The notes beneath the pieces are model-generated. The model saw only the letters and a program-made list of their open reading frames with translations. It was not told the origin of the DNA and made no database searches. A program made the position numbers and the translations under genes. Below, one piece after another: positions 569 through 15,997 of a stretch of DNA of 15,997 nt (the stretch's first letter is position 1; every line of letters begins with the position of its first letter). Origin of the DNA: an uncultured Gammaproteobacteria bacterium (GTDB lineage Bacteria; Pseudomonadota; Gammaproteobacteria; SZUA-229); NCBI GenBank assembly GCA_965368115.1, contig CBDULQ010000066.1, positions 1 through 15,997 of the forward strand. Reading direction: 5' to 3'.

Positions 569-599
569 GTTAAGAATCGGAAGCTTGATTCCGAGATAT

Positions 600-673: not shown

Positions 674-701
674 GGTTTGTGTGTATTCACAGAGAAAATA
701 T

Positions 702-897: not shown

Positions 898-975
898 GCG
901 AAGCTAGCTCAATTGGGTAGAGCAACTGACTTTTAATCAGTGTGTTACAGGTTCGAATCCTGTTCTTCTCAACCA
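898..975 (+). tRNA. tRNA-Lys(TTT)-like, body very similar to E. coli tRNA-Lys but acceptor stem imperfect; possibly a pseudo or variant tRNA
   Basis: D-arm GCTC-AATTGGGTA-GAGC. Anticodon arm ACTGA-CTTTTAA-TCAGT (anticodon TTT). Variable loop GTGTT. T-arm ACAGG-TTCGAAT-CCTGT. Acceptor 5' GCGAAGC pairs with 3' TCTTCTC at only 5 of 7 positions. The 3' end reads A-ACCA, one extra nt before CCA. Confidence 0.45.
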
Positions 976-1398
976 ACCTGTTACGTTGGCTAAGGTAAAG
1001 GCGAAAGCCTGCGGTTCGACTCCGCTTAAATGAGTGTCGAAAGACACAGACGACGACCAGGCCTCCGGTGAAGCCGGCGCCGCTTTGCGGCTCGGCTGCT
1101 CACAACGTGTATAGGGCCTGTGCAGTCGGCTTGGATGTGCAGTGCAGTTTGTCTGTAACGCCGTGTTGAAAAGGAAATTTTTCAAGGATGAAATCTCGGC
1201 TACACGGGCAGATGAATATGTACGTCACCCCGGCTGTCCGCCCCTTATGCGTGAGGTCGTCGCGTTTATATTCAAAGATTCTCAATTAAACCTGAAGGAG
1301 GTCTCATGAAGATTCGTTAACAGCCGGTAGTAGCATCCCTGTGAATGGGGACCGGCCAGGAAATGCTGCGTACTATTTATTAATCAAGGAGAATAATC

Positions 1399-2544: not shown

Positions 2545-2706
2545 CGTTTTGGGTTCAGACTGAGACTCCGGGCCAGGGAAGGTTCGGGGGCTGTCGGCTT
2601 GATTTAAAAGGACCAGAGCAGGAGGTGATGCGCTGGACTTAGTAACAGGCAAATATCTTTTCCATTGAGTGGGCCTGCCAAATGGGCGGGTTCATATTCA
2701 TATCAA

Positions 2707-2783
2707 ACCCACGTGGCCCAACTGGCAGAGGCGCTCGGCTTAGACCCGAGATGATGAAAGTTCGAACCTTTCCGTGGGTACCA
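2707..2783 (+). tRNA. tRNA-Leu(TAG) with a short (5-nt) variable loop, class-I-like architecture, CCA encoded
   Basis: Acceptor ACCCACG/CGTGGGT. D-stem GCC/GGC with an 11-nt loop. Anticodon arm CTCGG-CTTAGAC-CCGAG is perfect (anticodon TAG). The variable loop ATGAT is only 5 nt, whereas bacterial tRNA-Leu normally has a long arm. T-arm GAAAG-TTCGAAC-CTTTC. Discriminator A (a Leu identity element), then CCA. Confidence 0.6.
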
Positions 2784-2789
2784 GATTTT

Positions 2790-2864
2790 TCGCTGGTGGT
2801 GTAACAGGTAACACTCCGGACTTTGACTTCGGCATTGATAGTTCGAATCTATCCCGGCGAGCCA
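2790..2864 (+). tRNA. tRNA-Gln(TTG), CCA encoded
   Basis: Acceptor TCGCTGG/CCGGCGA, with U1-A72 as in E. coli tRNA-Gln. D-arm GTGT-AACAGGTA-ACAC. Anticodon arm CCGGA-CTTTGAC-TTCGG (anticodon TTG). Variable loop CATT. T-arm GATAG-TTCGAAT-CTATC. Discriminator G, then CCA. It lies 6 nt after tRNA-Leu. Confidence 0.7.
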
Positions 2865-2918
2865 ATTTCTGTATGCAATGTATATCCAGACCTTATTCAT
2901 CAACACAGGACAGGAGAG

Positions 2919-3482
2919 ATGGGATATACCATGCAACATATTCTCGCCGTCGATATCGGCGGCAGGCCTTTTGACTGGCTGCACTGGCAACACGTAGTAC
3001 AGCTATATGCACGGGATGAGATCGCCTGGGAAACCGGCACCGCGCTGTACCGTATTCGAGGCGGTCTCAATCGTCGAACCCGACAATGTAGTGAAATAGA
3101 GCTGACGTCCGTTGTATCGGTTCGAGGTGCAAATACCGCTGCTGTCTATCAGGGGCAGCCGTCGCTAAGTAATCGCACGCTATTTGCCAGGGACGATTAC
3201 CTGTGTATGTATTGTGGTCGTCGGTTGTCCATGTCGCAGCTAACTCGGGATCATATTATGCCGAGGGCGCAGGGTGGTCGTGATGACTGGGAAAATGTTA
3301 CTACCGCATGTAAGTCCTGTAATAATCGCAAGGGTAACAGGACCCCGGAGCAGGCAGGTATGCCGTTGCTGGCGGTACCTTATGTGCCGAATCATGCGGA
3401 ATTTCTGATGCTCGCCAATCGCCGTATTCTGGCGGATCAGATGGTATTCCTGCGTCAATATGTACCCAGGACTCGCCGTTAA
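2919..3482 (+). CDS. HNH endonuclease (small HNH nuclease, ~188 aa)
   Basis: The HNH motif reads CMYCGRR…DHIMPRAQGG…WENVTTACKSCNNRKGN (C-x2-C … H … N … C-x2-C … N). SD AGGAGA precedes the ATG at 2919. The listed ORF start at 2823 would overlap tRNA-Gln and is unlikely. A rho-independent terminator follows. Confidence 0.8.
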   Translation: MGYTMQHILAVDIGGRPFDWLHWQHVVQLYARDEIAWETGTALYRIRGGLNRRTRQCSEIELTSVVSVRGANTAAVYQGQPSLSNRTLFARDDYLCMYCGRRLSMSQLTRDHIMPRAQGGRDDWENVTTACKSCNNRKGNRTPEQAGMPLLAVPYVPNHAEFLMLANRRILADQMVFLRQYVPRTRR

Positions 3483-3485
3483 ATA

Positions 3486-3524
3486 GAACAAACCCGTTTC
3501 GTCCGGAAGCGGGTTTGTTCTTTT
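3486..3524 (+). terminator. rho-independent terminator after the HNH gene
   Basis: The stem GAACAAACCCG … CGGGTTTGTTC is perfect over 11 bp and is followed by TTTT. Confidence 0.75.
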
Positions 3525-3626
3525 CAGTCCTGTACCAATACCGCTCACTGTGCTTGCTCTCGATGTTTACACTGCCGGACTAAGGGCTCCGTCATCAGGC
3601 TTAACTGAGGAGGCTGGCAATAAGGG

Positions 3627-3642
3627 TATAACATGTTATAAT
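3627..3642 (+). promoter_or_regulatory. perfect 14-bp palindrome TATAACATGTTATA overlapping a TATAAT -10 box; candidate operator plus promoter of the TSUP gene
   Basis: The palindrome spans 3627-3640 and TATAAT spans 3637-3642. A weak -35-like TGGCAA lies 16 nt upstream. The ACATGT core is shared with the motifs at 10779-10797 and 5303-5311. Confidence 0.5.
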
Positions 3643-3695
3643 AAGTTAATTTTTTGCGGTATGAATATGGTAAATATTCTTTAAAACAATAAGTT

Positions 3696-4442
3696 ATGGA
3701 ATATATCTCAAGTATTATTGATACTCGGTGGGCACTTGCAGCGGTTGCCGTTCTGCTCGCCGGGGTGGTGCGTGGCTTTTCCGGTTTTGGTGCCGGGCTG
3801 ATTCTGGTGCCGACCCTGGGCGTGCTCTACGGCCCGGTCGAAGCGGTGGTATCGGTGATGTTACTGGAGCTGATTCCCACTGCTCAGATGTTGCCGCGCG
3901 CACTCAAACACTGTCACTGGCCCAGTGCTGCGCCCATGTTATTGATGGCGACGCTGACCATTCCGTTGGGTTCGTTTGTGCTCGTCGTGATGGATGAACA
4001 TCTGGTACGCGGCCTCATTGCCGTGGTGGTGTTGCTGGGTTGTGCCTGGCTGGCCAGTGGCAGGCGTCTCGTGTCTGCTACGGTATCGACCCGATCCGGT
4101 CCACTGCTGACCGGAGGACTCAGCGGTCTGTTGAGCGGGGCGGTTGGACTGGGCGGTTTGCCGGTGGTGATGTATTACCTGTCCGGTACGCATCGAGCCC
4201 AGGCGACGCGTTCGAGCATCATTGTGATATTGCTGGCCAGTGTGCTGGTGTCTTTGATCACGTTTCTCCTGCATGGCATCGTCAGTGAACAGATTGTCAT
4301 GCGTTGTCTCACCCTGGCGCCGTTATTGCTCTTTGCAACCTGGCTGGGTGGTTGTATATTCGGCAGAGTATCGGAGCAGTTGTTCCGTCGGCTGTTACTC
4401 ATTCTGTTGAGTATGGTCGGTCTGGTCACGCTGGCGATCTGA
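3696..4442 (+). CDS. TSUP family permease (TauE/SafE-like sulfite/organosulfonate exporter family, DUF81)
   Basis: The 248-aa polytopic membrane protein has the duplicated Gly-rich TSUP pattern: (AGVVRGFSGFGAGLILVP…) and (LLTGGLSGLLSGAVGLGGLPVVMYYL…). Confidence 0.8.
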   Translation: MEYISSIIDTRWALAAVAVLLAGVVRGFSGFGAGLILVPTLGVLYGPVEAVVSVMLLELIPTAQMLPRALKHCHWPSAAPMLLMATLTIPLGSFVLVVMDEHLVRGLIAVVVLLGCAWLASGRRLVSATVSTRSGPLLTGGLSGLLSGAVGLGGLPVVMYYLSGTHRAQATRSSIIVILLASVLVSLITFLLHGIVSEQIVMRCLTLAPLLLFATWLGGCIFGRVSEQLFRRLLLILLSMVGLVTLAI

Positions 4443-4489
4443 TGTAAATCCTGTGTTCGAACCATTCTATGCAGAAGGGGAATAACCAT

Positions 4490-4927
4490 ATGGAACTGCG
4501 CGCGTTGATTCAACAGGCCGAAGATATTCGTCAGCAACGTCACGCGCTGGCGCAACAGGATTTACAGCTCAGGCAACAACTGGAACACATCGAAGCGGAG
4601 ATTAAAAAGCTCGCCGATACCGATGAGCTGAATTACGAGAACCTCTCGGAACAGGAATTTCAGTTGTTGCTGTCGGAACTGGGCGACGATAAGCGCATCA
4701 AGATCGAAGTGGTGTACGCCGAGCCGAAACGCCAGATCATCAACGAAGTTCAGGTGCCCGACGGTGCGACCATCGAAGACGGTATCGTGCTTTCCGGTAT
4801 TCTCGACGAGCTACCGCATATTGAATTAACCGAAACCCGGGTGGGTATCTTCGGTGCCATCAAGCCCCTGGCGGAAGTTTTGCGTGACGGCGACCGCGTC
4901 GAAATCTATCGACCGGTTAACAGTTAG
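4490..4927 (+). CDS. rnfH: RnfH-family (UPF0125, RatB/YfjF-like) beta-grasp protein with a ~65-aa coiled-coil N-terminal extension
   Basis: The C-terminal ~85 aa (KIEVVYAEPKRQIINEVQVPDGATIEDGIVLSGILDEL…VGIFGAIKPLAEVLRDGDRVEIYRPV) closely resemble E. coli RatB/RnfH (VEVAYALPEKQY…EGATVEEAI…VGIY…DGDRVEIYRPL). SD GAAGGGG lies 9 nt before the ATG at 4490. An in-frame ATG at 4469 is an alternative start. Confidence 0.7.
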   Translation: MELRALIQQAEDIRQQRHALAQQDLQLRQQLEHIEAEIKKLADTDELNYENLSEQEFQLLLSELGDDKRIKIEVVYAEPKRQIINEVQVPDGATIEDGIVLSGILDELPHIELTETRVGIFGAIKPLAEVLRDGDRVEIYRPVNS

Positions 4928-5365
4928 TCTTTTAATCAGTTTTTTCTTTCTGCTGCAGCGCGGGCAAGCTCGCGCCTGTTCATCTTTTTCTATTCCTTCC
5001 TGTCTGCTTCGCGACGGAAAAAACTGTTTTGATATTAATTCCTTAGCGATGTTTTTCTGCATTCCTGCCTAGCACGACCAGTACTTGTATTAAGACTTTC
5101 AGACAGTGACGCACCAGTATGCGTTATTGAAGTGCCCCGTATCCTTGCATCGCACCATTATCGTTCGTGCTGCCTGTTAATTCAGACTTTCGTGATATTT
5201 CTCAATGCAAGCCGTTTTTCGTTTAAAAACATTAACCTGTCTCTTGATGCGGGTAATTGTTTATGCCTTGGCACAGGCTGTGCAACAGTATTACCAGTCA
5301 ATATGACATGTTGTAACAAGTTAACTCATCAAAACGGGCTGACATAAAAACGCGAGGAAATGGTT

Positions 5366-6739
5366 ATGAAGAAACGAATTGTCGCATTGCTAACACTGAT
5401 GGTGTCCTGCTCGGGGGTATCCGCCGAGACCATCCGTATTGCAATCGGTCATCAGAGTAAGTGCACCGACACCTACACCGCAGGCATTATTGTTAAAGAA
5501 CTCAAATTGATCGACAAGTACCTCCCCAGAACCGGTAAATACAAAGACGCTGAATACGAATACAACTGGAAAGACTACGCGTCCGGTTCGCCGATCACCA
5601 ATCAGATGATGGCCAACAAGCTCGACTTCGGTGTTATGGGTGATTACCCGCTGATCGTCAATGGCGCCAAGTTCCAGGAAACCAATAGCCTCGAGTCACT
5701 TTACATCGCCGGTACCGGTTACAACGTGAAAGGTTCAGGTAACGCCATCGTGGTGCCGGTCAAATCCGATGTATTCGAACTGGAAGACCTGAAAGGCAAA
5801 ACCATTTCCGTGCCGGTTGGTAGTGCTGCCTGGGGTATGACCCTGAAAGCGCTTCAGGACAAAGGCATTCGTGAACATGTCGAAATCAAGAACCAGAGTC
5901 CTTCGGTGGGTGCCGCCAATATTGCGCAGGGTAAGATCGACGCGCACGGTGACTTCTGTCCCTGGTCCGAAATCATGGAATTCCGCGGTACCGGCCGCAA
6001 GATCTTCGACGGTAGTGAAGCCGGCGTACCTTACCTGCACGGTGTAGTCGTGCGTAAGGACTATGCGGAGAAATATCCCGAAGTGGTCATCGCTTTCATG
6101 AAAGCGATTGTTGAAGCCGGTGACTGGGTACGCAAGGACCCGGTGATGGCTGCAACCAAACTGGAAGAGTGGACCGGTGTAGAGCGCGAAGTACAGTACC
6201 TGTATTTCAGCAAGGGTGGCGCATTGACGCTTGACCCGACTATCAAAGATGCCTGGGTCGATGCACTGAAATTCGATCACACGGTGCTGGTGAAAGAAAA
6301 AGCCATTCCGCCGCTGGATTTCAATGCCTGGATTACCGACAAGTACATCCGCCAGGCCTATAGCGAAATGAAACGTGATTACGAAGCGGATCTGACCTAC
6401 ACCCGGGACCCCAAGGCAGAAAACATGAAGCTGCCGCCGGCTGAAGTCTGGCATGCGGACAAGGGTATTATCAGCTACGACAGTGTTGCCGCCATGTTGG
6501 ATGATGCCGCCAAATTCAAGAAAGACGGCAAGCTGCGTGCATCCTATGTTTTCGATAACACCACCGGCCTGAAGATCTTCGCCAAGATTGCCTTCTACGT
6601 GAAAGATAAAGAGGGTAAATATGTGGCCTTCATGCGCAAGCCGGATGCCAGCGAGTTCGCTACGACATCCGGCGGCCAGCTGGTCGACAAAATCGAAACA
6701 TCAACAGGTGAATTCCTGCAACTGAGTTCCCTCAACTGA
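5366..6739 (+). CDS. ABC transporter periplasmic substrate-binding protein, NitT/TauT (NMT1/SsuA/TauA/NrtA-like) family, signal peptide
   Basis: The signal peptide MKKRIVALLTLMVSCSGVSA-E is present. The ~458-aa length recalls the NrtA/CmpA-sized members. The gene precedes a cognate permease and a NitT/TauT-type ATPase. A GAGG motif lies 9 nt before the ATG at 5366; the in-frame ATG at 5360 is too close to the SD. Confidence 0.8.
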   Translation: MKKRIVALLTLMVSCSGVSAETIRIAIGHQSKCTDTYTAGIIVKELKLIDKYLPRTGKYKDAEYEYNWKDYASGSPITNQMMANKLDFGVMGDYPLIVNGAKFQETNSLESLYIAGTGYNVKGSGNAIVVPVKSDVFELEDLKGKTISVPVGSAAWGMTLKALQDKGIREHVEIKNQSPSVGAANIAQGKIDAHGDFCPWSEIMEFRGTGRKIFDGSEAGVPYLHGVVVRKDYAEKYPEVVIAFMKAIVEAGDWVRKDPVMAATKLEEWTGVEREVQYLYFSKGGALTLDPTIKDAWVDALKFDHTVLVKEKAIPPLDFNAWITDKYIRQAYSEMKRDYEADLTYTRDPKAENMKLPPAEVWHADKGIISYDSVAAMLDDAAKFKKDGKLRASYVFDNTTGLKIFAKIAFYVKDKEGKYVAFMRKPDASEFATTSGGQLVDKIETSTGEFLQLSSLN

Positions 6740-6759
6740 TTGATGAGCTTCATTGGGTT

Positions 6760-6780
6760 CCGGCGGTTAGCCGCCGCCGG
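6760..6780 (+). other. GC-rich intercistronic hairpin between the SBP and permease genes
   Basis: CCGGCGG-ttagccg-CCGCCGG forms a 7-bp G/C stem with no clear U-tract. A role as an attenuator or mRNA-stability element setting SBP:permease stoichiometry is conceivable. Confidence 0.4.
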
Positions 6781-6812
6781 TTCTCCAATGATTTTTCCAG
6801 CCGGGTAGAGCA

Positions 6813-7775
6813 ATGACATTGGAAAGCGCAAAACTAATTAAACAGGATGACCTGGATACGCCGGAGACGAATCCGGACGCCGCCAGCGACACGCAGGCGA
6901 CGGCACAGGTCAAGCCGATCAAGCAAGCGGATGCTGATTCCGCCACCGCGGAAACAGCCGTTATGAATACAAGACCTGCGGCCAGCACCGGTCGGCCCGC
7001 AAAAAAAGTGCCCTGGGATCGCTATGCGATTCGCGTTGCGGCGGTCATCGTGGCCGTTTTGCTCTGGCAGCTTGCATCGTCCACAGGGTTTAACTTTGTG
7101 ATCAATTTCGAGAACATTCCATCGCCACAAAAAGTGGGTGCACAGTTCGTTCACCTGCTGGGCACGGAAGAGTTCTATACCCACATCGTTGTCAGCCTTA
7201 AACGCATACTGATCGCTTTCACCATGGCCTCGGTGCTGGGTGTTATCGCCGGTATATTCATGGGGCGCTCACGTCTGGTCTATGACGTGCTCATGCCCTA
7301 TATCGAAATTTTACGACCGATCCCGGCCGTGGCCTGGATTCCGCTGTCCATTCTGATGTTGCCGACGGAAGAATCGAGCATCATCTACATCACTTTCCTC
7401 GGCGCTTTGTTCCCAGTGATTCTGAATACCATCCATGGCGTCGAGCAAACACCGGAAACGCTGGTAAGGGCGGCGCGTTCACTGGGAGCGAATAATCGCG
7501 CCATCATGTGGCATGTGATTCTGCCCGGCGCCTTGCCCAGCATCATGGCGGGTCTGGCGATTGGCATGGGTGTGTCCTGGTTCTCGCTGCTGGCCGGCGA
7601 GATCATCAGCGGTCAGTACGGTATCGGTTACTTCACCTGGAACTCCTACACACTCGTGGAATACCCGAACATCATTATCGGCATGCTGACAATCGGTGGC
7701 CTGGGTACCTTGTCTACCTGGCTTGTAAAGCAGGCGTCCAAGCCGGCACTTCGCTGGCAGAGTTCGGAGCATTGA
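6813..7775 (+). CDS. ABC transporter permease (BPD_transp_1; SsuC/TauC/NrtB-like)
   Basis: The conserved permease loop LGANNRAIMWHVILPGALPSIMAGLAIGMGVSWFSLLAGE is present, with six or more hydrophobic helices. A ~90-aa low-complexity hydrophilic N-terminus may mean the real start is later, for example the ATG near 6962. Confidence 0.8.
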   Translation: MTLESAKLIKQDDLDTPETNPDAASDTQATAQVKPIKQADADSATAETAVMNTRPAASTGRPAKKVPWDRYAIRVAAVIVAVLLWQLASSTGFNFVINFENIPSPQKVGAQFVHLLGTEEFYTHIVVSLKRILIAFTMASVLGVIAGIFMGRSRLVYDVLMPYIEILRPIPAVAWIPLSILMLPTEESSIIYITFLGALFPVILNTIHGVEQTPETLVRAARSLGANNRAIMWHVILPGALPSIMAGLAIGMGVSWFSLLAGEIISGQYGIGYFTWNSYTLVEYPNIIIGMLTIGGLGTLSTWLVKQASKPALRWQSSEH

Positions 7776-7776
7776 T

Positions 7777-8430
7777 ATGTACGCAAGAATACTGATCAAC
7801 GAAATTCGCCAGCACTGGATCATGTTTCTCGGCATCAGTATCGGCTTTGTGGTGATGTACTACGGCAGCCTGTTGCTACTCACCATGCTGCGTTTCGGCG
7901 AGATTCCGAACTATGTGGAGTTCTATGACATTTTCAAAATCTATGCCGGCATTTTCGAAGGTACGCCGTCGCTCAGCGATGCACTGATGATCCTGAAAGA
8001 CGAAGCCTGGATCGAAACCGGTTATAAAAATCCGGATTACTACGGCGTTGCGACCTGGAGCTACATGCTGATTCCACCGAAGATGTTGCTGGTGTTATTG
8101 CTTGGTATGTTGCTCGGCGTGTTCAGTATCCTGGTGACTTCGAAACGCAAGGCTTGTGCACGAGGTGTGGATAAAAAAATGGTCGCTGCTGCAGGTGTGG
8201 GTTCTTCACTGGTCTGCCTGACCAGTGCGACCCTGACCTGGGTGGTGTGTTGTGCGACGCCGTCCTGGGTGGTGGCCCTGGCCATGCTCGGTATGAACGC
8301 CTCACTGGCCCTGTTCCTGGAACCGCTGGGGCAGGTGATGATGTTGCTGGGGCTGGGCATTATGTTTGCCATCATCATTGTGCAACTGCGCCAGATGGCT
8401 GCCTATAAAACACACGAGCATCATTCCTGA
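7777..8430 (+). CDS. uncharacterised polytopic membrane protein (217 aa) inserted between the permease and ATPase genes
   Basis: The start is translationally coupled: permease TGA at 7773-7775, ATG at 7777. Several hydrophobic segments and a Cys cluster (…SSLVCLTSATLTWVVCCATPSWVV…) are present. I recognise no family. Confidence 0.55.
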   Translation: MYARILINEIRQHWIMFLGISIGFVVMYYGSLLLLTMLRFGEIPNYVEFYDIFKIYAGIFEGTPSLSDALMILKDEAWIETGYKNPDYYGVATWSYMLIPPKMLLVLLLGMLLGVFSILVTSKRKACARGVDKKMVAAAGVGSSLVCLTSATLTWVVCCATPSWVVALAMLGMNASLALFLEPLGQVMMLLGLGIMFAIIIVQLRQMAAYKTHEHHS

Positions 8431-8462
8431 AATTAGACTGATAACAGACGAGAGATAGACGC

Positions 8463-9329
8463 GTGCTGAATGTAAAAGAAGACATCGATCATCAGGCCGA
8501 CATGCCGCCGCTGGGTGCGCCCCGTATGCAACAGCATAAACCCTCCCAGGGACGTATCGTCATCGACGACGTTTCGGTGAGGTTTCCCGGCGGTGCGGTT
8601 GCGGTCGAGGGCGCCTGCCTGACCGTGGAGCCAGGTGAATTCATCTGCCTGCTGGGTCCTTCCGGTTGCGGAAAATCGACCCTGATGAATACCGTTGCCG
8701 GTTTCGTTCAACCCACTAGCGGTCGGGTTAGTGTCGACGACAGGGTCATCGAAAAACCCGGCTTCGATCGCGGCATGGTATTCCAGCATCATTCGTTGTT
8801 TCCCTGGAAAACCGTTCGCGACAATATTGCGTTCGGACCGCTGATGGCGAACAAGGGCAAAAACGAAGCGATTAGTATCGCGCGAACCATGCTTGGTATG
8901 GTCGGGCTGAGTGCGTATGAAAATCGTTACCCGGGTGTGCTGTCCGGTGGAATGAAACAGCGTGTGGGTATTGCACGTGCACTGGCCAACTATCCCAATG
9001 TATTGCTGATGGACGAACCCTTCGGTGCACTGGATGCGCAGACTCGCACCATGATGCAGGAGAATCTGCTGCAGATCTGGGGCGAATTCGGTATCAGTGT
9101 GATTTTTGTAACCCACGACATCGATGAAGCCGTATTTCTTGCCGATCGTGTGGTGGTGATGAGTGCTAGCCCCGGCCGGCTGATTGCGGATATCAAGGTC
9201 GATCTGCCACGACCGCGTGAACCGGACATGGTGACGTCGGATGTATATATCCAGACCAAGCGCCAGTGTCTGGACCTGATTCGAGAAGAATCCTTACGCG
9301 CCTTCGAACAACAGGGTGACAAGGGTTAA
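8463..9329 (+). CDS. ABC transporter ATP-binding protein, NitT/TauT family (SsuB/TauB/NrtD-like)
   Basis: Walker A GPSGCGKST, signature LSGGMKQRVGIARAL, Walker B LLMDEPFGALD and H-loop VTHDIDEA are all present. The start is uncertain: GTG at 8463 has a GAGAGA SD, and in-frame ATGs follow at about 8500 and 8527. Confidence 0.85.
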   Translation: MLNVKEDIDHQADMPPLGAPRMQQHKPSQGRIVIDDVSVRFPGGAVAVEGACLTVEPGEFICLLGPSGCGKSTLMNTVAGFVQPTSGRVSVDDRVIEKPGFDRGMVFQHHSLFPWKTVRDNIAFGPLMANKGKNEAISIARTMLGMVGLSAYENRYPGVLSGGMKQRVGIARALANYPNVLLMDEPFGALDAQTRTMMQENLLQIWGEFGISVIFVTHDIDEAVFLADRVVVMSASPGRLIADIKVDLPRPREPDMVTSDVYIQTKRQCLDLIREESLRAFEQQGDKG

Positions 9330-9338
9330 ACGAAAAGT

Positions 9339-9989
9339 ATGAACATGAACGTATTGTATGACCACACAATCGGCCGGAGTGCGGCGATCCTTGCGATCGT
9401 CGCCGTGCTGATCCTCGGTTGCAGTACGCAAACTGAAAGCGACATGCCGGAATCGATTCGCGATGTTGCTCTGGAAACACCGATCGCTCTGGCAGATGTG
9501 AAACTGCTGGATGATCAACAACAGCCGGTGACGCTGGAAAATTTTACCGGTCACTGGACCCTGGTGACCTTCGGTTACACCCATTGCCCGGATATCTGTC
9601 CGGCGACTCTGTCGCAGATCGGCATGCTGTACAAGCTGGTGCAACAGGATGGTGTAAAGGATCTACCCAGGGTGTATTTCGTCAGTGTCGATCCGCAGCG
9701 CGATGCTCTGGAATACCTGGGTGAATACACCCGTTATTTCAACACAGCGTTCATCGGTATCAGTGGTGACCAGCAGGCGTTGAAAAATTTCGAAGACCAG
9801 TTTGGTGTGTTTCATCGATATGAGAAACAGTCGGGCTCGGAAAATTATCTGGTGGATCACAGTGCGGATATTTTCCTCGTCGATCCACAGGCGCGTATCG
9901 TGGCGAGCTTTCAGCCGCCGATGAATTTACGTCAGGTTGCCGATCTGTATGCGGGGTTTGTTGATTATTATGCCGGGAAACAGAGTTGA
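9339..9989 (+). CDS. Sco1/SenC family copper chaperone / thiol-disulfide oxidoreductase, lipoprotein
   Basis: Lipobox LILGC-S. The Sco CxxxC motif reads HCPDICP, downstream His, thioredoxin-like fold signature (…YFVSVDPQRD…). Confidence 0.85.
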   Translation: MNMNVLYDHTIGRSAAILAIVAVLILGCSTQTESDMPESIRDVALETPIALADVKLLDDQQQPVTLENFTGHWTLVTFGYTHCPDICPATLSQIGMLYKLVQQDGVKDLPRVYFVSVDPQRDALEYLGEYTRYFNTAFIGISGDQQALKNFEDQFGVFHRYEKQSGSENYLVDHSADIFLVDPQARIVASFQPPMNLRQVADLYAGFVDYYAGKQS

Positions 9990-10734
9990 TGAACTTGTTG
10001 ATCGCGATACTTTGTCAGCGACACGCCACTGGTTGTGGCGAGGTGGTCTGCTGTGGGGTGCATTCATCATGATGAACAGTATCGAACTGCGTGCCGACAC
10101 CATCGACAACAGCGGCCAGGAGCCTTATGAGCAATGCGGTTACTGCCACGAATACGACGGTAATACGGTGATGGCAGATTTTCCGCGCCTGGCGGGACAG
10201 TGGCCGGCGTATCTGCGAAAACAGTTACATGATTTCAGGGCGAAGCGTCGCATCAGTTCGCATATGAACCCGACCGCAGAACTGCTCAGTGACGAAGACA
10301 TCGAGTCGGTTGTGGCTTATTTCAACAGCCAGCTGCCGCGTGCAAAACAGTTACCGGCGCAGAACGAAAACGATGCGCAGCATGCCCGGCGCCTGTTTAC
10401 CCATGGTGATACACAACGCGGTTTGCCGGCCTGTATCGAATGCCATGGCGACCAGGGTCAGGGCAGGGCGCAACCGCTGGCACCGAACATTGCCGGTCAA
10501 CAACCGGATTATCTGCAACGCCAGCTGAACAACTTCCGCGCCGGCGAACGTAGTAACGACCCAAACGCTCGCATGCGTCAGGTTGCGGCGCTGTTGACGG
10601 ATCACGAGATCGTCATTCTGAAGGATTTTCTGGCGCGTATGCAGCCGGTGAAAGCGCCTGCGCAAACCGTATCCGGCGCGGCTGAATCGAATCTTAATTT
10701 AACCCGAAACACAACGGCGCAGACAAAACATTAA
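9937..10734 (+). CDS. di-haem cytochrome c4-family protein
   Basis: Two CxxCH haem-binding sites (CGYCHE, CIECHG), each followed by the c4-type motif (LAGQ…YL.KQL.DFR / IAGQQPDYLQRQLNNFRAGER). The ORF overlaps the sco gene by 53 nt in another frame. The true start may be an internal ATG at 9970 or a TTG near 10009, either of which would yield a signal peptide (…GGLLWGAFIMMNSIELRA-DT). Confidence 0.75.
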   Translation: MPICMRGLLIIMPGNRVDELVDRDTLSATRHWLWRGGLLWGAFIMMNSIELRADTIDNSGQEPYEQCGYCHEYDGNTVMADFPRLAGQWPAYLRKQLHDFRAKRRISSHMNPTAELLSDEDIESVVAYFNSQLPRAKQLPAQNENDAQHARRLFTHGDTQRGLPACIECHGDQGQGRAQPLAPNIAGQQPDYLQRQLNNFRAGERSNDPNARMRQVAALLTDHEIVILKDFLARMQPVKAPAQTVSGAAESNLNLTRNTTAQTKH

Positions 10735-10774
10735 GTCTGCATAAACAATAACTTGTACTGATCAGGTGAAGCCC

Positions 10775-10797
10775 TATAATGACATGTCATAACATGT
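10775..10797 (+). promoter_or_regulatory. gntR promoter -10 (TATAAT) overlapping the palindrome ATGACATGTCAT and a second ACATGT repeat; candidate autoregulatory operator
   Basis: TATAAT spans 10775-10780 with a -35-like TTGTAC 16 nt upstream. A perfect 12-bp palindrome spans 10779-10790, followed by AACATGT at 10791-10797. GntR/HutC operators are typically palindromes built around GT…AC. Confidence 0.5.
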
Positions 10798-10814
10798 AGA
10801 TACAGGTACCGATT

Positions 10815-11567
10815 ATGAGCACAGATCGTAAACAGTTTTCACCTCTCAGTAATGGTTCGTTACAGCCCCTGTATATCCAGATCAAGGAGGCGATCAAACA
10901 GCGCATCCTTGATGGGGATTACGCCGCCCACGAACGCCTGCCGTCGGAATCGGAGCTGATGAAAGTGTTCGGTGTCAGCCGCATCACCGTACGCCAGGCG
11001 TTAAGGGATCTGCATAGCGACGGCATGGTGTTCAGCGTGCAGGGAAAGGGCACTTTCGTATCCAAACCGAAAGCAGTGCAGGACGTGCAACGGCTGCAGG
11101 GTTTCGGTGAGGCGATGGCGCCGAAAGGTTATGAAACATCGGCGCGAGTGATCAGCGTAAGTGAAACCCGGGCCAGCCAGGAAGTGGCGGAAGCGCTGGA
11201 TATCACGCGCAACGTCAAGGTCGTCGAACTGAAACGGGTGCGTTTTCTGAATCGCGAACCCATTTCCATCGACCACAGTTTCTTCCCGCTGGACATCGGT
11301 CAGAAACTGCAGGCCCGCGACCTGACACAGGATGTCTTTCCGCTACTGGAAAACGAATTCGGCGTTCTGCTGAGTCATGCGGATTTGCAGATCGAAGCGA
11401 CCGCGGCCAGTGAAGAACAGGCGAGTTTTCTCAACATCGACGTCAATCGGCCGGTGTTGAAGATCAAACGCCTGGTGTTCAACCAGCAGGGTAAGCCGGT
11501 GGACTTCGAATATCTGTTTTATCGCGGTGATGCTTTCCAGTATCACCTGCGCGTAGACAGAAAATAG
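10815..11567 (+). CDS. GntR-family transcriptional regulator, HutC/FarR subfamily (HTH_GntR + UTRA domain)
   Basis: The N-terminus (…LPSESELMKVFGVSRITVRQALRDLHSDGMVFSVQGKGTFV) is a classic GntR winged-helix domain. The C-terminal ~150 aa are UTRA-like. Confidence 0.85.
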   Translation: MSTDRKQFSPLSNGSLQPLYIQIKEAIKQRILDGDYAAHERLPSESELMKVFGVSRITVRQALRDLHSDGMVFSVQGKGTFVSKPKAVQDVQRLQGFGEAMAPKGYETSARVISVSETRASQEVAEALDITRNVKVVELKRVRFLNREPISIDHSFFPLDIGQKLQARDLTQDVFPLLENEFGVLLSHADLQIEATAASEEQASFLNIDVNRPVLKIKRLVFNQQGKPVDFEYLFYRGDAFQYHLRVDRK

Positions 11568-11713
11568 CGACACTCAGGGCTCGATGTGTCGTTGCAGCGT
11601 AATCGTTCGTCAGAATTACAGTACGCACGATTGCATAACAGGGATGTGAATATTGTTCTGTCCGAGGATTCGGGCAGAGACATCAGGATCACGACTCAAA
11701 ATAGGTGAAAACA

Positions 11714-13459
11714 ATGGCACACGAGAAAATTACCGACGAAATCCTGGAGTGCGATGTACTGGTCATCGGTGGTGGTACCGCAGGACCCATGGCCGCCGTC
11801 AAGGCCAAGCAAAGCAATCCCGATCTCAACGTGGTGGTGCTGGAAAAGGCCAACGTCAAACGTAGCGGCGCAATCAGTATGGGTATGGACGGCCTCAACA
11901 ATGCGGTGATTCCCGGTCACGCCACCCCCGAACAATACGTCAAGGAAATCACTGTCGCCAACGACGGTATCGTCAACCAGAAAACCGTCATGGCCTACGC
12001 ACAGAAAAGCTTCGACATGATCAAGCAGCTGGACGAATGGGGCATCAAGTTCGAGAAAGACGAAACCGGCGATTATAACGTCAAGAAAGTCCATCACATG
12101 GGCACTTATGTACTGCCCATGCCGGAAGGTCATCACATGAAGAAGGTGCTGTATCGTCAGTTACGTCGGCATCGAGTCAGCGTGGTGAACCGTTTCATGG
12201 CCACGCGCTTGTTCAAGGACAGTGAAGGTAAAATTTGCGGCGCGTTCCTGCTCAATCCGCGCACCGGAGAAACGGCCGTGATTCGTGCCAAGACGGTGAT
12301 TCTGTGTACCGGTGCTGCCGGTCGCCTGGGTCTGCCGTCTTCCGGTTACCTGTTCGGTACCTATGAAAATCCCACCAACGCCGGTGACGGTTACAGCCTG
12401 GCCTATCATGCGGGTGCCGAGCTGAGCGGCCTGGAATGTTATCAGATCAATCCCCTGATCAAGGACTACAACGGTCCGGCCTGTGCTTATGTGACCGGGC
12501 CCATGGGTGGATATACCGCTAACGCCCAGGGTAATCGTTTCATCGAATGCGACTACTGGAGCGGGCAGATGATGATGGAATTCTACAAGGAACTGGAAGG
12601 CGGTAAGGGGCCGGTGTTTCTGAAACTGGATCACCTGGCCGAGGAAACCGTCGAGGAAATCGAAGAGATTCTGCATACCAACGAGCGTCCCAGTCGTGGT
12701 CGTTTCCACGAACGGCGCGGCACCAACTATCGGGAAAAAATGGTCGAGATGCACATTTCCGAAATCGGTTTCTGCAGCGGTCACAGTGCTTCCGGTGTGT
12801 GGGTTGATGAAAACGCACGCACCACCGTACCCGGTTTGTATGCTGCAGGCGACCTGGGTAGTGTGCCGCACAACTATATGCTGGGCGCTTTCGTGTATGG
12901 CGAACTGGCCGGAGTCGATGCGGCCAGTTACTGTGCTGAACACGCGCTGGGCGAAATCGATCCGGAGGAAGTGGAAAAAGAAAAGCAGCGCGTACTCGCG
13001 CCTTTACAAAGGGAAGACGGTATTCCGCCCGCGCAGATGGAATACAAGCTGCGCCGCATGGTGAACGATTATCTGCAACCGCCCAAAGTGACGCGCAAGA
13101 TGGAAATCGGTCTGGACCGTTTCGCGGAGATTCGCCAGGACCTGGACATGCTGTGCGCCAACGATCCCCACGAACTGATGCGCGCCATGGAAGTGCATTT
13201 CATTCTCGATTGTGCGGAGATGGCGGCTCATTCATCGCTGTACCGTACCGAGAGCCGTTGGGGTCTGTATCACTATCGCGTCGACTATCCCCAGGTGGAT
13301 GAAGACAACTGGTTTGTGCATGTGCAGACCATCAAGGGTGAAAACGGTCAGCCGACCTGTTTCAAACGACCCATCGATCCCTATGTCGTCGAGCTGGATG
13401 AAACCGAGAAAGACGCTTATCAAAAACTGCGTGTTGCCAGCAACACGGCCGAAATGTAA
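11714..13459 (+). CDS. FAD flavoprotein of the fumarate-reductase/succinate-dehydrogenase superfamily, closest in motifs to adenylylsulfate (APS) reductase alpha subunit (AprA-like), ~581 aa
   Basis: Dinucleotide-binding motif DVLVIGGGTAGPMAAV. An AprA-type RSGA…G…N motif (KRSGAISMGMDGLNNAV; compare AprA ERSGAVAQGLSAIN). The C-terminal motif ESRWGLYHYRVDYPQVDEDNWFVH matches the AprA/FrdA (ESR…YR.D(Y/F)P…D.NW) signature. SD AGGTGA lies 5 nt before the ATG at 11714; the listed GTG at 11705 is less likely. The protein is shorter than canonical AprA (~640-660 aa). Confidence 0.75.
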   Translation: MAHEKITDEILECDVLVIGGGTAGPMAAVKAKQSNPDLNVVVLEKANVKRSGAISMGMDGLNNAVIPGHATPEQYVKEITVANDGIVNQKTVMAYAQKSFDMIKQLDEWGIKFEKDETGDYNVKKVHHMGTYVLPMPEGHHMKKVLYRQLRRHRVSVVNRFMATRLFKDSEGKICGAFLLNPRTGETAVIRAKTVILCTGAAGRLGLPSSGYLFGTYENPTNAGDGYSLAYHAGAELSGLECYQINPLIKDYNGPACAYVTGPMGGYTANAQGNRFIECDYWSGQMMMEFYKELEGGKGPVFLKLDHLAEETVEEIEEILHTNERPSRGRFHERRGTNYREKMVEMHISEIGFCSGHSASGVWVDENARTTVPGLYAAGDLGSVPHNYMLGAFVYGELAGVDAASYCAEHALGEIDPEEVEKEKQRVLAPLQREDGIPPAQMEYKLRRMVNDYLQPPKVTRKMEIGLDRFAEIRQDLDMLCANDPHELMRAMEVHFILDCAEMAAHSSLYRTESRWGLYHYRVDYPQVDEDNWFVHVQTIKGENGQPTCFKRPIDPYVVELDETEKDAYQKLRVASNTAEM

Positions 13460-13469
13460 GGAGCCTGTT

Positions 13470-13703
13470 ATGCCATTTGCACTCAATCAAACCAATGTTC
13501 CGGTTGTGGTCAACGCGGAAGCCTGTATCGCCGACAAAGGCTGTAATGCCTGTGTCGATGTATGTCCACTGGACGTGCTGGAGATCAACAAGGAAAAAGG
13601 CGTTGCCTTTATGAAATACGATGAATGCTGGTACTGCCTGCCCTGCGAGACAGACTGTCCCACCAACGCCATTCACGTCAACATTCCTTATTTACTGCGC
13701 TAG
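13470..13703 (+). CDS. small 2x[4Fe-4S] ferredoxin resembling the N-terminal domain of APS reductase beta subunit (AprB-like), 77 aa
   Basis: SD TAAGGAG lies 6 nt before the ATG, immediately after the stop of the flavoprotein. The Cys clusters are CIADKGCNACVDVCP and CWYCLPCETDCP. The pattern …LEINKEKGVAFMKYDECWYCLPC… parallels AprB (…KEKMKAYNREPDMCWECYSC…). The AprB C-terminal tail is absent. Confidence 0.65.
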   Translation: MPFALNQTNVPVVVNAEACIADKGCNACVDVCPLDVLEINKEKGVAFMKYDECWYCLPCETDCPTNAIHVNIPYLLR

Positions 13704-13719
13704 GCCGGGAGATTTTTAG

Positions 13720-14682
13720 ATGAATTTATCATTCGACGATACGCCGGAACTGGCGGAAGTAAAAACGCGCCTGGCGGATGCGGATGCCGGTGTGCGTCGC
13801 ATCGCGGTGATGGACCTGATCGATATTTACGAAGACGGCTGTATCGAGCTGGCCATCAAGGCTTTGTCAGATGACGACGCAGGCGTGCGGAAACAGGCGG
13901 CGGCCACCCTGGAAGAGTTCGAAGGCCAGGAAGTGATCGCGGCGCTGCTTGAAGTGCTCTCCGATGCCGACGAAGACGTGCGTAACACGGCTGCGGAAAC
14001 CCTGGCTGAAAACAAGGACCCGGCTGCTGGCGTCCTGATTCTGGAAAAACTCAAGGACGATGCCGTGTTCGTCAAGGCGGCATGCCTGCGTGCACTGCGT
14101 GAGTTACGTCTCGACGCCGCCCAGGCGCCGGCGCTGGAACTGCTGGGCCATGCGGACGCCGGCGTGCGTCGCGAAGCCATCGGTGTACTGGCTTATCTGA
14201 AAAAAGATGAAGTACTGATGGCGCTGATGGATGCGGCACGTAACGATGAAGATCCGTATGTGCGCCGTGTCGCCATGGGCTCACTGGTGTTCAGCAAAAC
14301 CGCGCGCGCCGGTGAAACCCTGATCGAAGGCATGCGGGATGACAACTGGCAGGTGCGTGAGGAAGCTGCGTTCGTGGCCGGCAAAATGGGTCTGCAGGAC
14401 GGTGTGGAAGCATTAATCGACGCCATGAATGACGATTACTGGCAGGTGCGCGTCAAGGCCGCCGCCAGTCTAGGCAAACTGAAAGCGGAGCAGGCGGTGG
14501 ATGTGCTGGGACAGGCGCTGTCCTACAACATCAGCAATCTACGTAAGGAGGCGGCGGCGTCTCTGGGTGAGATTGCATCGCCGGCCGGTCTGCCGTTTTT
14601 ACAGACCGCAGCCCAGGATGTGGACCCGGATGTGCGCAAGATCGCCAACTGGGCCATCGAACAAATCGAGAAAGCGAAGTAG
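13720..14682 (+). CDS. HEAT-repeat (PBS-lyase/E-Z type) protein, 320 aa
   Basis: About 8-9 tandem units of ~30 aa follow the pattern (D..VR..A..ALG.L….A...L...L.D) (e.g. DAGVRRIAVMDL, DAGVRKQAAATL, DEDVRNTAAETL, DAGVRREAIGVL, DPYVRRVAMGSL, NWQVREEAAFVAG, YWQVRVKAAASLG, DPDVRKIANWAI). SD GGGAGA lies 7 nt upstream. Confidence 0.75.
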   Translation: MNLSFDDTPELAEVKTRLADADAGVRRIAVMDLIDIYEDGCIELAIKALSDDDAGVRKQAAATLEEFEGQEVIAALLEVLSDADEDVRNTAAETLAENKDPAAGVLILEKLKDDAVFVKAACLRALRELRLDAAQAPALELLGHADAGVRREAIGVLAYLKKDEVLMALMDAARNDEDPYVRRVAMGSLVFSKTARAGETLIEGMRDDNWQVREEAAFVAGKMGLQDGVEALIDAMNDDYWQVRVKAAASLGKLKAEQAVDVLGQALSYNISNLRKEAAASLGEIASPAGLPFLQTAAQDVDPDVRKIANWAIEQIEKAK

Positions 14683-14694
14683 GGGGGAGATGTT

Positions 14695-15021
14695 ATGGCT
14701 TTTGTAGTAGGCGAGGCCTGTATCCGTTGCAAGTACACCGATTGCGTGGATGTGTGTCCGGTGGATGACTGCTTCCGCGAAGGTGAGAACTTTCTGGTCA
14801 TCGACCCGGTGACCTGTATCGACTGTGGACTGTGTGTGCCGGAGTGTCCCGCCGACGCGATTTTCGCCGAAGACGATGTGCCGGCGGAGCAGCAGGAATA
14901 CATTGCATTGAACGCGGAGCTGGCGCAACACTGGCCGCCGATCAATTCACCCAAACCGCCGTTGGCGGATGCGGATGACTGGGTGGATACCGGCGACAAA
15001 TTGCAGTACCTGGTGCGCTAA
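14695..15021 (+). CDS. fdxA: 7Fe ferredoxin, Azotobacter FdxA type ([3Fe-4S][4Fe-4S])
   Basis: [62 protein letters not shown] is the canonical FdxA sequence pattern. SD GGGGGAGA is present. Confidence 0.85.
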
Positions 15022-15048
15022 TCGACGAAACTGAAACGGGAAACCGGT

Positions 15049-15624
15049 GTGAGCGAATACCTGTTACTACTGTTCGGAACCATTTTCGTGAACAACCTGG
15101 TGTTGTCGCGTTTTCTTGGCCTGTGCCCGTTCATGGGTGTGTCGAGAAAACTGGAAACCGCGATCGGTATGGGGCTGGCGACGGCGTTCGTGCTCACCCT
15201 GGCTTCCGTATGCAGTTACCTGGCGAATCGTTATCTGTTACAGCCGTTGCAACTGGAGTTTCTGAAGACACTGACGTTCATCCTGGTCATCGCCGTGATC
15301 GTACAGTTTACCGAAATGGTGATCCGCAAAACCAGTCCGTTGCTGTACAACGTACTGGGTATTTACCTGCCGCTGATCACCACCAACTGTGCAGTACTCG
15401 GTGTCGCCCTGCTCAATGTACAGGCGCAGAACAGTTTTCTGCAGTCCGCGTTTTACGGGTTCGGTGGTGCACTGGGTTTCACCCTGGTGATGATCCTGTT
15501 CGCCTCGATTCGGGAACGCATCGAAGTGGCTGACGTGCCCTTATCGTTTCGCGGTGCACCCATAGCATTGATGACGGCGGGTTTTATGGCGGTGGCCTTC
15601 ATGGGCTTCAGTGGCATGGCATAG
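15049..15624 (+). CDS. rnfA: Rnf/Rsx electron-transport complex subunit A
   Basis: Near-identical over long stretches to E. coli RsxA (…[37 protein letters not shown]… / …[29 protein letters not shown]…). GTG start. Confidence 0.9.
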
Positions 15625-15631
15625 GATCGAT

Positions 15632-15997
15632 ATGGCAATCATTGCACTCACATTACTGGCGCTGGTGTTTGGTCTGCTGCTGGGTTATGCGGCGATTCGT
15701 TTCAAGGTCGAGGGCGATCCGATGGTGGATCAGGTGGATGCGGTGCTACCACAGACCCAGTGCGGCCAGTGCAGCTACCCCGGCTGTCGACCTTATGCGC
15801 AGGCCATCGTCGACGGCGAAGCGGAGATCAACCAGTGTCCGCCGGGTGGTGAAGCAGGCATGCGCGCACTGGCGGACCTGCTGAACCGTGAACCCATTCC
15901 TCTGGTGGTCGAAGATGCGGGTGAGGATGATGGTTTACGTAAGCTGGCATTGATCAACGAAGACACCTGCATCGGTTGTACCAAGTGTATACAGGCC
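15632..15997 (+). CDS. rnfB: Rnf/Rsx complex subunit B (5' partial; runs off the window)
   Basis: [91 protein letters not shown]… matches E. coli RsxB, including the CGQC(G/S)YPGCRPYA motif. No stop codon occurs before the window end. Confidence 0.85.

Follow-up and report, generated by a model that had tools for sequence, protein, structure and literature searches.

Two classes of desulfonating enzymes are known: the O2-dependent oxygenases (SsuD, TauD and MsuD) and the lyases of the glycyl-radical or thiamine diphosphate type. In addition, the use of arylsulfonates by Pseudomonas putida S-313 requires a flavoprotein with its partner ferredoxin as well as a binding protein of the SsuA-like type, encoded by the asfRABC genes. 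A transposon insertion in asfA abolishes this use (PMC4267179). In the reductase for 3'-phosphoadenosine 5'-phosphosulfate (PAPS) of Methanothermococcus thermolithotrophicus (MtPAPSR), Lys120, Arg121 and Ser122 are the loop residues for the 3'-phosphate, and Trp42 of the beta subunit has been proposed to relay electrons to flavin adenine dinucleotide (FAD) (PMC10322725). We analyzed a stretch of 15,997 nucleotides (the window; contig CBDULQ010000066.1, positions 1-15,997, forward strand) from an uncultured Gammaproteobacteria bacterium (SZUA-229). It contains 16 co-directional genes on the plus strand, to the right of a tRNA-rich left end, and among them a four-gene core that encodes a flavoprotein related to AprA, the alpha subunit of adenosine 5'-phosphosulfate (APS) reductase, a small ferredoxin related to the beta subunit AprB, a HEAT-repeat protein and an FdxA-type ferredoxin. 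We conclude that these proteins belong to a module that is a widespread, uncharacterized variant of the AprAB type, with a new subunit composition (a HEAT-repeat protein and usually a DUF971 protein), a rebuilt pocket, and a dedicated importer and regulator.

A first-pass annotation of the same sequence had placed four open reading frames at 11714-15021, and all four were confirmed there on the plus strand. The FAD flavoprotein (putative alpha subunit, 581 amino acids, family NF006131/PRK08275, with PF00890 and PF02910) is encoded at 11714-13459, the 2x[4Fe-4S] ferredoxin (putative beta subunit, 77 amino acids, assigned by Fer4 families and by its alignment to AprB) at 13470-13703, the HEAT/PBS-lyase-type repeat protein (320 amino acids; HEAT_2, E = 5e-56) at 13720-14682, and the FdxA-type ferredoxin (108 amino acids, of 7Fe type according to the FdxA family, with a DUF3470 domain) at 14695-15021. 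The latter passed NF045490 with 150.9 bits against a cutoff of 135. The flavoprotein gene starts with the ATG at 11714, behind an AGGTGA ribosome-binding site; the GTG at 11705, taken as the start by the open reading frame tool, falls within this site, and a database protein (P0001) 100% identical to the flavoprotein likewise has 581 amino acids. The intergenic gaps from the flavoprotein gene through the ferredoxin, HEAT and fdxA genes to rnfA are 10, 16, 12 and 27 nucleotides, and a terminator scan found no plus-strand terminator-like site within 11714-15624. The operon thus continues with the HEAT protein and FdxA, directly upstream of rnfA and rnfB, as the first-pass annotation had described it. 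Its further statements held as well: that the flavoprotein is some 60-80 amino acids shorter than real AprA (581 against 643 in Archaeoglobus fulgidus and 662 in Desulfovibrio gigas), that the ferredoxin corresponds to the N-terminal domain of AprB only (77 against 150-166 amino acids, aligning to AprB residues ~2-64), and that qmo and aprM are missing, none of them being among the genes of the window.

The flavoprotein is a full-length member of a family with a generic name. It scored 1078.7 bits against NF006131 (cutoff 587) over positions 5-575 of the 577 in this profile, which together with PRK08275 is named 'fumarate reductase/succinate dehydrogenase flavoprotein subunit'; the public names on cluster members are generic or misleading too, e.g., 'PreA subunit'. 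The cutoffs of the characterized families were all missed: 183 against 641.75 bits for AprA (TIGR02061), 302.8 against 557 for the AprA-like family NF005331, 178 against 567.3 for FrdA/SdhA (TIGR01812), 119 against 452.75 for NadB (TIGR00551), and 61 against 369, in the N-terminal part only, for the tricarballylate dehydrogenase TcuA (NF006130); the TfrA cutoff was also far out of reach. The top PDB sequence match was MtPAPSR (8a8o_A, 1.3e-69), followed by A. fulgidus AprA (1e-40). An AlphaFold2 model of the flavoprotein, built on a 79-sequence alignment (mean predicted local distance difference test score 91.8), was compared with solved structures using Foldseek. The match to 8a8o_A had E = 1.5e-45, template modelling (TM) scores of 0.89/0.93 and a root mean square deviation of 2.1 Å, whereas the TM scores were 0.88/0.80 for AprA (1jnr_A) and ~0.81 for FrdA.

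The family is tight, with only two further full-length representatives above 57% identity and all others at or below 44% in a library clustered at 50% identity. In a neighbour-joining tree (100 bootstraps), the core flavoprotein family formed its own clade (100% support) nested in a 12-member clade (also 100%), which was sister (86%) to the clade of A. fulgidus AprA, MtPAPSR and the Ilyobacter AprA-like protein. E. coli SdhA, FrdA and NadB and Cupriavidus metallidurans AsfA were placed outside both clades. This agrees with the earlier expectation that the flavoprotein lies within no characterized clade. Of the motifs that had been listed as setting AprA apart from FrdA/SdhA, the C-terminal part, ESRW...DYP...NW, is a variant of a motif common to the whole Succ_DH_flav_C domain. 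Judged from alignments and tree, the flavoprotein is a sister of AprA and PAPS reductase and a member of neither, and 'AprA-like' is to be understood as a statement about fold and ancestry, not about the reaction.

The active site shows where the family departs from its relatives. In all 10 members of the AprA/PAPSR clade that were aligned, Asn74, Trp234, Tyr235, Arg260 and Arg265 (A. fulgidus numbering) are kept, and Tyr95 is kept in 8 of 10. His398, which was mapped via MtPAPSR His346 (the A. fulgidus AprA stretch was not in the alignment), is present in all nine members for which that stretch was available. The equivalents of Asn74 and His398 span the 22-member AprA supergroup, wherever the stretch was available, and are not found in FrdA, SdhA and NadB, which carry Ala or Val at the Asn74 position and no His. 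We take this Asn and His to be the contacts of the FAD-sulfite adduct in AprA structures. Of the AprA active-site positions compared, the flavoprotein family keeps only these two (N62 and H357). Tyr95 is replaced by Glu78, Trp234-Tyr235 by Tyr217-Glu218 and Arg265 by Leu248, each invariant in the core family, and Arg260 by Tyr243 (Phe in two core members). Of the four equivalents whose conservation the first-pass annotation had put up for checking, that of Asn74 is therefore present and those of Tyr95, Arg265 and Trp234 are not. Arg265 is reportedly essential in APS reductases. At the PAPS loop positions Lys120, Arg121 and Ser122 the flavoprotein has Thr, Tyr and Val, and the fumarate/aspartate motifs QxHPT and RGEGG read YQINPL and TGPMGG. 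Because Arg265, Arg260, Trp234 and Tyr95 are lost, we do not regard the flavoprotein as an APS or PAPS reductase, and because the QxHPT and RGEGG motifs are absent, we do not regard it as a fumarate- or aspartate-type enzyme. It appears that the sulfite-handling half of the site was retained and the half facing adenosine monophosphate (AMP), i.e., the leaving group, was rebuilt. The new pocket may include two blocks that are invariant in and specific to the family, DYWSGQMM and ERPSRGRFH, as well as a conserved Cys354 beside the His.

The 77-residue ferredoxin matched AprB in 3gyx_B (1.1e-6), 1jnr_B (1.5e-6) and 8a8o_C (2.7e-6). It keeps the tryptophan of the 'CW.C..C...CP' motif of D. gigas AprB and ends after that domain; with no beta-sheet segment and no long C-terminal tail of the sort that clasps AprA, it scored 33.7 bits against the 135.65 required for AprB by TIGR02060. 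The HEAT protein matched positions 631-896 of the 898-residue fusion family NF010374/PRK13800, and a Streptomyces protein of 925 amino acids (P0122) is a flavoprotein-HEAT fusion 57-59% identical to the window flavoprotein. That the two occur naturally in one polypeptide argues strongly for the HEAT protein being an enzyme subunit. It is probably the third subunit, with a putative scaffold role. A PDB match (4d4z) raised the possibility of a diiron enzyme like deoxyhypusine hydroxylase, which we rejected, as no His-Glu metal motifs could be read from the sequence of the HEAT protein.

In a scan of contigs from one genome per species, at least 599 stretches matched, at least 591 of which encode a relative of the flavoprotein. 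The best 80 of these and the loci from other look-ups, window included, gave 87 non-redundant loci, 63 of them with full flanks. The small ferredoxin is encoded in 86 of the 87 loci (63 of the 63 fully flanked ones), the HEAT protein in 79 (62), a DUF971/GBBH-like_N protein in 60 (53), the GntR/UTRA regulator in 73 (56), the binding protein of the importer in 68 (54), its permease in 71 (56) and its ATPase in 73 (58), compared with FdxA in 25 (13) and Rnf genes in 5 (2). The conserved unit consists of the HutC/GntR regulator, the flavoprotein, the ferredoxin, the HEAT protein, the SsuA/TauA-like importer and usually the DUF971 protein, for which a role in Fe-S maturation may be supposed; FdxA, Rnf and TauE are lineage-specific additions. 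The four-gene cassette that the first-pass annotation had seen in the window is thus conserved for flavoprotein, ferredoxin and HEAT protein, and FdxA drops out as a core member.

The module occurs in Gamma-, Beta- and Alphaproteobacteria, Acidithiobacillia, Actinobacteria and Cyanobacteria, and its carriers include sulfur oxidizers, methanotrophs, rhizobia, Pseudomonas, Cupriavidus, Acinetobacter baumannii, Streptomyces and cyanobacteria, often on plasmids. The gene order varies: regulator, flavoprotein, ferredoxin, binding protein, permease, ATPase, HEAT, DUF971 in Pseudomonas, Acinetobacter and many Burkholderiales; regulator, flavoprotein, ferredoxin, HEAT, FdxA, binding protein, permease, ATPase in the Thiobacillus type; and regulator, ferredoxin, binding protein, permease, ATPase, flavoprotein-HEAT fusion in Streptomyces. 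The minimal set, DUF971, flavoprotein, ferredoxin and HEAT, was found on Mesorhizobium pMLa. A fumarate reductase of the reverse tricarboxylic acid cycle of sulfur oxidizers was also considered and rejected, given the missing substrate motifs and the importer and regulator that accompany the module. Sister subfamilies with 35-44% identity to the flavoprotein (P0138 in locus L091, P0139 in L105/L106 and P0126 in L092) have a ferredoxin of 64-78 amino acids and no HEAT protein, and adjoin either a PF03601 membrane protein or TctCBA transporters, once together with a GltD-like protein. An importer combined with a flavo-FeS enzyme seems to be the pattern of the whole clade, with differing substrates.

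The importer and regulator genes of the window lie upstream of the flavoprotein gene on the plus strand. A periplasmic binding protein of 459 amino acids (5360-6739; NMT1/SsuA/TauA-like, PF09084 and PF13379) has a C-terminal extension of ~130 amino acids. It is followed by an ATP-binding cassette (ABC) permease of the NitT/TauT type (6813-7775; PF00528), the corresponding ATPase (8463-9329; PF00005) and a GntR/HutC-family regulator with a UTRA effector domain (10815-11567; PF00392 and PF07702). The regulator gene directly precedes the flavoprotein gene in 73 of the 87 loci. Together with a TSUP/TauE-family membrane transporter (3696-4442, plus strand; PF01925, 2e-27), which is peripheral and lineage-specific, these are the neighbours that had been noted before, and all are present. 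PDB matches of the binding protein included SsuA (3uif, 4.6e-17) and TauA (6ssy, 3.5e-15), and by this measure SsuA and TauA are its nearest characterized relatives. The nearest models for the permease were SsuC, NtrB and TauC, all under cutoff (SsuC 148 against 347 bits), and those for the ATPase were taurine and nitrate ATPases, likewise under cutoff (taurine model 251 against 357). A nitrate, bicarbonate or cyanate importer was considered, as binding proteins of 440-480 amino acids and one 'nitrate' annotation could suggest it, and was set aside since the PDB matches of the binding protein are SsuA and TauA, with neither NrtA nor CmpA among them. The 432-bp gap between rnfH and the binding-protein gene (4928-5359) contains no riboswitch according to Rfam, the best hit being a below-threshold snoRNA (E = 0.6).

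Sulfur-scavenging genes are found nearby in 20 of the 87 loci. Each of these loci encodes at least one of the following: luciferase-like (SsuD-type) monooxygenases, TauD, the SrpI encapsulin set, a sulfate-type binding protein and a DASS transporter. On a Nostoc plasmid, the flavoprotein, ferredoxin and HEAT genes stand among genes for two sulfonate-binding proteins, an Mrp/NBP35 protein and metX/metY. In a 2025 survey of 'Fervidacidithiobacillus caldus' plasmids, the same module was annotated, in silico only, as organosulfonate uptake and assimilation (PMC12375680). The first-pass annotation had guessed at a sulfur oxyanion or organosulfonate as the substrate; the neighbours in other genomes speak for this guess in the 20 loci, and the substrate itself stays putative. 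In 6-7 Burkholderiales loci, the SrpI type-2A encapsulin gene stands beside the module with genes for a SufS-like cysteine desulfurase of 630-700 amino acids and a CysE-like acetyltransferase (e.g., locus L079, 13378-17697, and L083, 6075-8832), and a DUF971 gene lies between this set and the HEAT gene.

On its other side, the core is followed on the plus strand by rnfA (15049-15624; PF02508, 3.3e-60), the first gene of rnfABCDGE, and by the N-terminal part of rnfB (15632-15997; its translation contains CGQCSYPGC), which runs off the window. RnfH is encoded at 4469-4927 on the same strand (PF03658, 1.3e-26). The full rnfABCDGE cluster lies downstream in L104, a 92%-identical relative, and in L001 and L003, and in Rnf-bearing genomes (window, L104, L001 and L003) the module of importer, regulator and enzyme sits between rnfH and rnfABCDGE. 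Among the 87 loci, Rnf adjoins the module only in Sedimenticola, Thioalkalivibrio, two uncultured Gammaproteobacteria and the window lineage. The RnfH reading frame is long (133-152 amino acids), with the RnfH domain confined to the last ~75 residues, and the TauE/TSUP gene is located beside rnfH (window, L104) or after rnfE (L001, L003).

In eight other FdxA loci and on the At. caldus plasmid pTcM1, the next gene encodes a protein of ~1150-1200 amino acids that matches both subunits (5jca_L, 5e-12; 5jca_S, 5e-6) of NfnI, the NADH-dependent ferredoxin:NADP oxidoreductase (PDB 5jca). It is an apparent fusion of an NfnB-like (GltD-type, Fe-S and FAD) and an NfnA-like (PyrK-type) part (e.g., L006, 16609-20145, and L096, 10574-14035; also L011, L013, L014, L018, L029, L030 and L050) and is possibly a ferredoxin:NAD(P)H oxidoreductase made of a single chain. 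This Nfn-like protein was found only beside FdxA-bearing versions of the module without Rnf. Altogether, an Rnf or Nfn-like gene is present in 13 of the 25 loci with FdxA and in none of the 62 without it (Fisher p = 5e-9, not corrected for shared ancestry). Since two unrelated ferredoxin-reducing systems occupy the same position, we argue that the enzyme would consume reduced low-potential ferredoxin and that FdxA is probably its electron donor. The earlier prediction of a ferredoxin- or Rnf-fed reductase is strengthened by the restriction of these genes to FdxA loci.

We propose, with a probability of roughly 0.45, that the module encodes a reductase that draws on ferredoxin, supplied here by Rnf, and releases sulfite from an organosulfonate or sulfate ester that has been imported. 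The SsuA/TauA-like ABC importer would bring in a sulfonate or sulfate ester as a small organic oxyanion of sulfur, with the module controlled by the HutC-type regulator. A cytoplasmic enzyme of three subunits (the AprA-related one with FAD, the AprB-like one with 2x[4Fe-4S] and the HEAT-repeat scaffold) would convert it. Reduced FdxA would donate the electrons, which would reach FAD by way of the two clusters and the conserved tryptophan. The reduced FAD would then attack the sulfur of the substrate, and sulfite would leave as in APS/PAPS reductases; the pocket for the leaving group differs from that of the latter because the AMP-side residues are replaced. FdxA would be held reduced by Rnf in the window organism and by the Nfn-like enzyme in other lineages. 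What we infer here from residues and gene context is which substrate is used, which way the electrons flow and that sulfite is released.

Several points weigh against this proposal. With Arg265 replaced by Leu, the sulfite-adduct chemistry is not assured, and when the C-S bond of an unactivated sulfonate is cleaved reductively, the leaving group is a poor one. The binding protein is under the SsuA_fam cutoff (115 against 163.5 bits), sulfur-type neighbours occur in only 20 of the 87 loci, chiefly in Burkholderiales, and the regulator is of the HutC type, not of the CysB/Cbl/SsuR type usual for sulfur-starvation genes. Sulfur oxidizers such as the likely host are rarely short of sulfur. P0138 and P0139, the nearest sister subfamilies, adjoin transporters of the carboxylate type (TctCBA), and we found no experimental work on the flavoprotein family in the literature.

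A more specific version can be put forward only tentatively. The module could represent a third class of desulfonation, in which an O2-independent, ferredoxin-driven flavo-iron-sulfur enzyme reduces an imported sulfonate (or a sulfate ester or thiosulfonate) and removes sulfite from it through an adduct at FAD-N5, the HEAT protein docks the ferredoxin, and the system is wired to Rnf in some autotrophs.

The pairing of P0138 and P0139 with tricarboxylate-type transporters also bears on the alternative that holds up best, a reductase or dehydrogenase for a non-sulfur organic anion (a carboxylate, nitro or nitrogen compound), the sulfur neighbours being coincidental. It would fit the HutC regulators, whose usual signals are catabolic substrates, the fact that all three transporter components are under sulfonate-specific cutoffs, and the range of NitT/TauT transporters, which also carry nitrate, cyanate, bicarbonate and pyrimidine precursors. 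However, the His and Arg of the QxHPT and RGEGG motifs are not conserved, the binding protein matches SsuA and TauA with no NrtA or CmpA among its PDB matches, sulfur-scavenging neighbours occur in three phyla, and the Asn and His of the supergroup presumably contact the sulfite adduct in AprA. We consider a non-sulfur substrate unlikely, though not negligibly so.

It is slightly less probable still that the flavoprotein and ferredoxin are a mere electron-transfer pair for a separate desulfonating oxygenase such as SsuD, as proposed for AsfA/AsfB. The asfAB operon indeed follows the same logic, combining an FAD_binding_2 flavoprotein with a small 2x[4Fe-4S] ferredoxin and an ABC transporter of the SsuA-like type, and luciferase-like monooxygenases and TauD are encoded near the module in some Burkholderiales loci. 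An oxygenase is, however, absent from most of the 87 loci, Pfam detected no NAD(P)H-binding domain in the flavoprotein, and the full capping and substrate domain is kept with its invariant DYWSGQMM and ERPSRGRFH residues. Using the published asfA primers, we located AsfAB of C. metallidurans CH34 (Rmet_4334/5). CH34 AsfA is only 25% identical to the flavoprotein (N-terminal 249 residues), scores 56 bits on PRK08275 and lies outside the AprA supergroup, so that an identity of the flavoprotein with AsfA was rejected and AsfAB remains a distant analogue. Against the family loci, the forward asfA primer had at least two mismatches, and the primers did not pair properly. To our knowledge, the role proposed for AsfAB has itself not been shown biochemically.

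The enzyme could also work in the oxidative direction, as a dehydrogenase acting on an imported sulfonate (e.g., an analogue of succinate or aspartate such as 3-sulfopropanoate or cysteate) and passing electrons through ferredoxin to Rnf. Reversibility is common in the fumarate reductase superfamily, and Rnf can run either way, but such C-C or C-N dehydrogenations are far too positive in potential to reduce ferredoxin. In addition, the PDB relatives of the Nfn-like partner are ferredoxin-linked NAD(P)H oxidoreductases, and no hydratase, sulfo-lyase or other follow-up enzyme is conserved in the module. We judge this direction improbable.

Finally, an assimilatory, ferredoxin-fed APS/PAPS reductase of the dissimilatory-like type, as in M. 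thermolithotrophicus, is very improbable and was rejected on failed profile cutoffs, lost arginines and gene context: although MtPAPSR is the closest solved structure and characterized enzyme, and Clostridia AprAB-like enzymes likewise have no AprB tail, the flavoprotein reaches 303 of the 557 bits of NF005331, Arg260, Arg265, Trp234, Tyr235 and Tyr95 are all replaced, sat, cysC and cysDN are not among the annotated recurrent gene clusters of the 87 loci, the true PAPSR type (Ilyobacter) stands in a DASS-cysC-aprA-like-fdx-cysD-cysN cluster, and the linked importer is of the sulfonate and not of the sulfate type.

Three further genes are inserted between importer and regulator components of the window, all on the plus strand. 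Between the permease and ATPase genes, a membrane protein of 217 amino acids with an invariant WVVCC(A/S)TPxW motif is encoded at 7777-8430. It has no Pfam or NCBIfam match, and homologues occupy the same position in L009, L010, L068, L081 and L104. A SCO1/SenC protein (9339-9989; PF02630, 1.8e-37), which accompanies the 217-residue protein in five loci, and a dihaem c-type cytochrome (9937-10734; PF00034, two matched stretches) follow the ATPase gene. The true start of the cytochrome is probably 3' of the listed TTG; the homologue in L104 has 218 amino acids. Five other gammaproteobacterial loci carry the trio in the same position, which is suggestive of a step in the periplasm or membrane that is linked to copper or thiols and coupled to the importer. 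At the left end of the window, ARAGORN predicted 10 tRNA genes at 32-971 and 2707-2864 (Asn, Phe, Val, Asp, His, two Lys, Leu, Gln and one unassigned), one tRNA-Lys being 83 nucleotides long. They are interleaved with genes for an SPFH/Band-7 protein and an HNH endonuclease (1399-2544 and 2823-3482). The fraction of G and C is 0.49 in the array against 0.53-0.59 in the remaining window, and the array may be a mobile or phage-derived tRNA island.

The family, with at least 591 matching stretches, is labelled throughout as fumarate reductase/succinate dehydrogenase, although its profile scores and active-site motifs speak against that function. Should the sulfur reading be true, the module would stand for widespread O2-independent mining of organosulfur, which would matter for sulfur cycling in soils and the sea and for the assimilation of sulfonate sulfur without oxygenases, and the scaffold of APS reductase would have been re-used for another leaving group. 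The link of FdxA to Rnf and Nfn-like enzymes offers a concrete consumer for Rnf-made reduced ferredoxin in non-diazotrophic sulfur oxidizers. Several carriers are genetically tractable.

Compared with known systems, the flavoprotein shares its superfamily (PF00890 and PF02910) and its fold (TM ~0.8) with the flavoproteins of fumarate reductase and succinate dehydrogenase and with L-aspartate oxidase. Unlike Frd/Sdh, the window module has neither a membrane anchor nor a three-cluster FrdB/SdhB subunit. AsfAB differs in its LysR regulator, in place of the HutC type, and in having no HEAT protein. With AprAB (1jnr/2fja and 3gyx), the window pair shares the fold (TM 0.88), the cofactor layout of FAD and two [4Fe-4S] clusters, the C-terminal ESRW...DYP...W motif, Asn74, the His and the AprB tryptophan. 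However, the flavoprotein is 62-81 amino acids shorter, the beta subunit has no tail, the catalytic Arg and the nucleotide-facing residues are gone, and sat, qmo and aprM are neither in the window nor among the annotated recurrent neighbours of the 87 loci. The NF010374 (PRK13800) fusions of Actinobacteria belong to the same flavoprotein clade (57-59% identity) and are likewise accompanied by a GntR regulator, a small ferredoxin and an SsuA-like importer. Equally uncharacterized, they are single polypeptides of 900-925 amino acids, whereas the window uses two genes. MtPAPSR (8a8o; NF005331; the 'AprAB-like' complexes in the DiSCo survey) resembles the window module in combining an FAD-containing alpha subunit with a ferredoxin-like beta subunit that is short and has no AprB tail, and in the equivalents of Asn74 and the His and the tryptophan of the beta subunit. 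It is ~29-35% identical to the window flavoprotein and belongs to a separate clade, and its beta subunit has 104 amino acids against 77. The window family adds the HEAT and DUF971 partners, and where enzymes of the MtPAPSR type are found in a context of sat, cysC and cysDN, the window family is accompanied by a sulfonate-type ABC importer and a HutC regulator.

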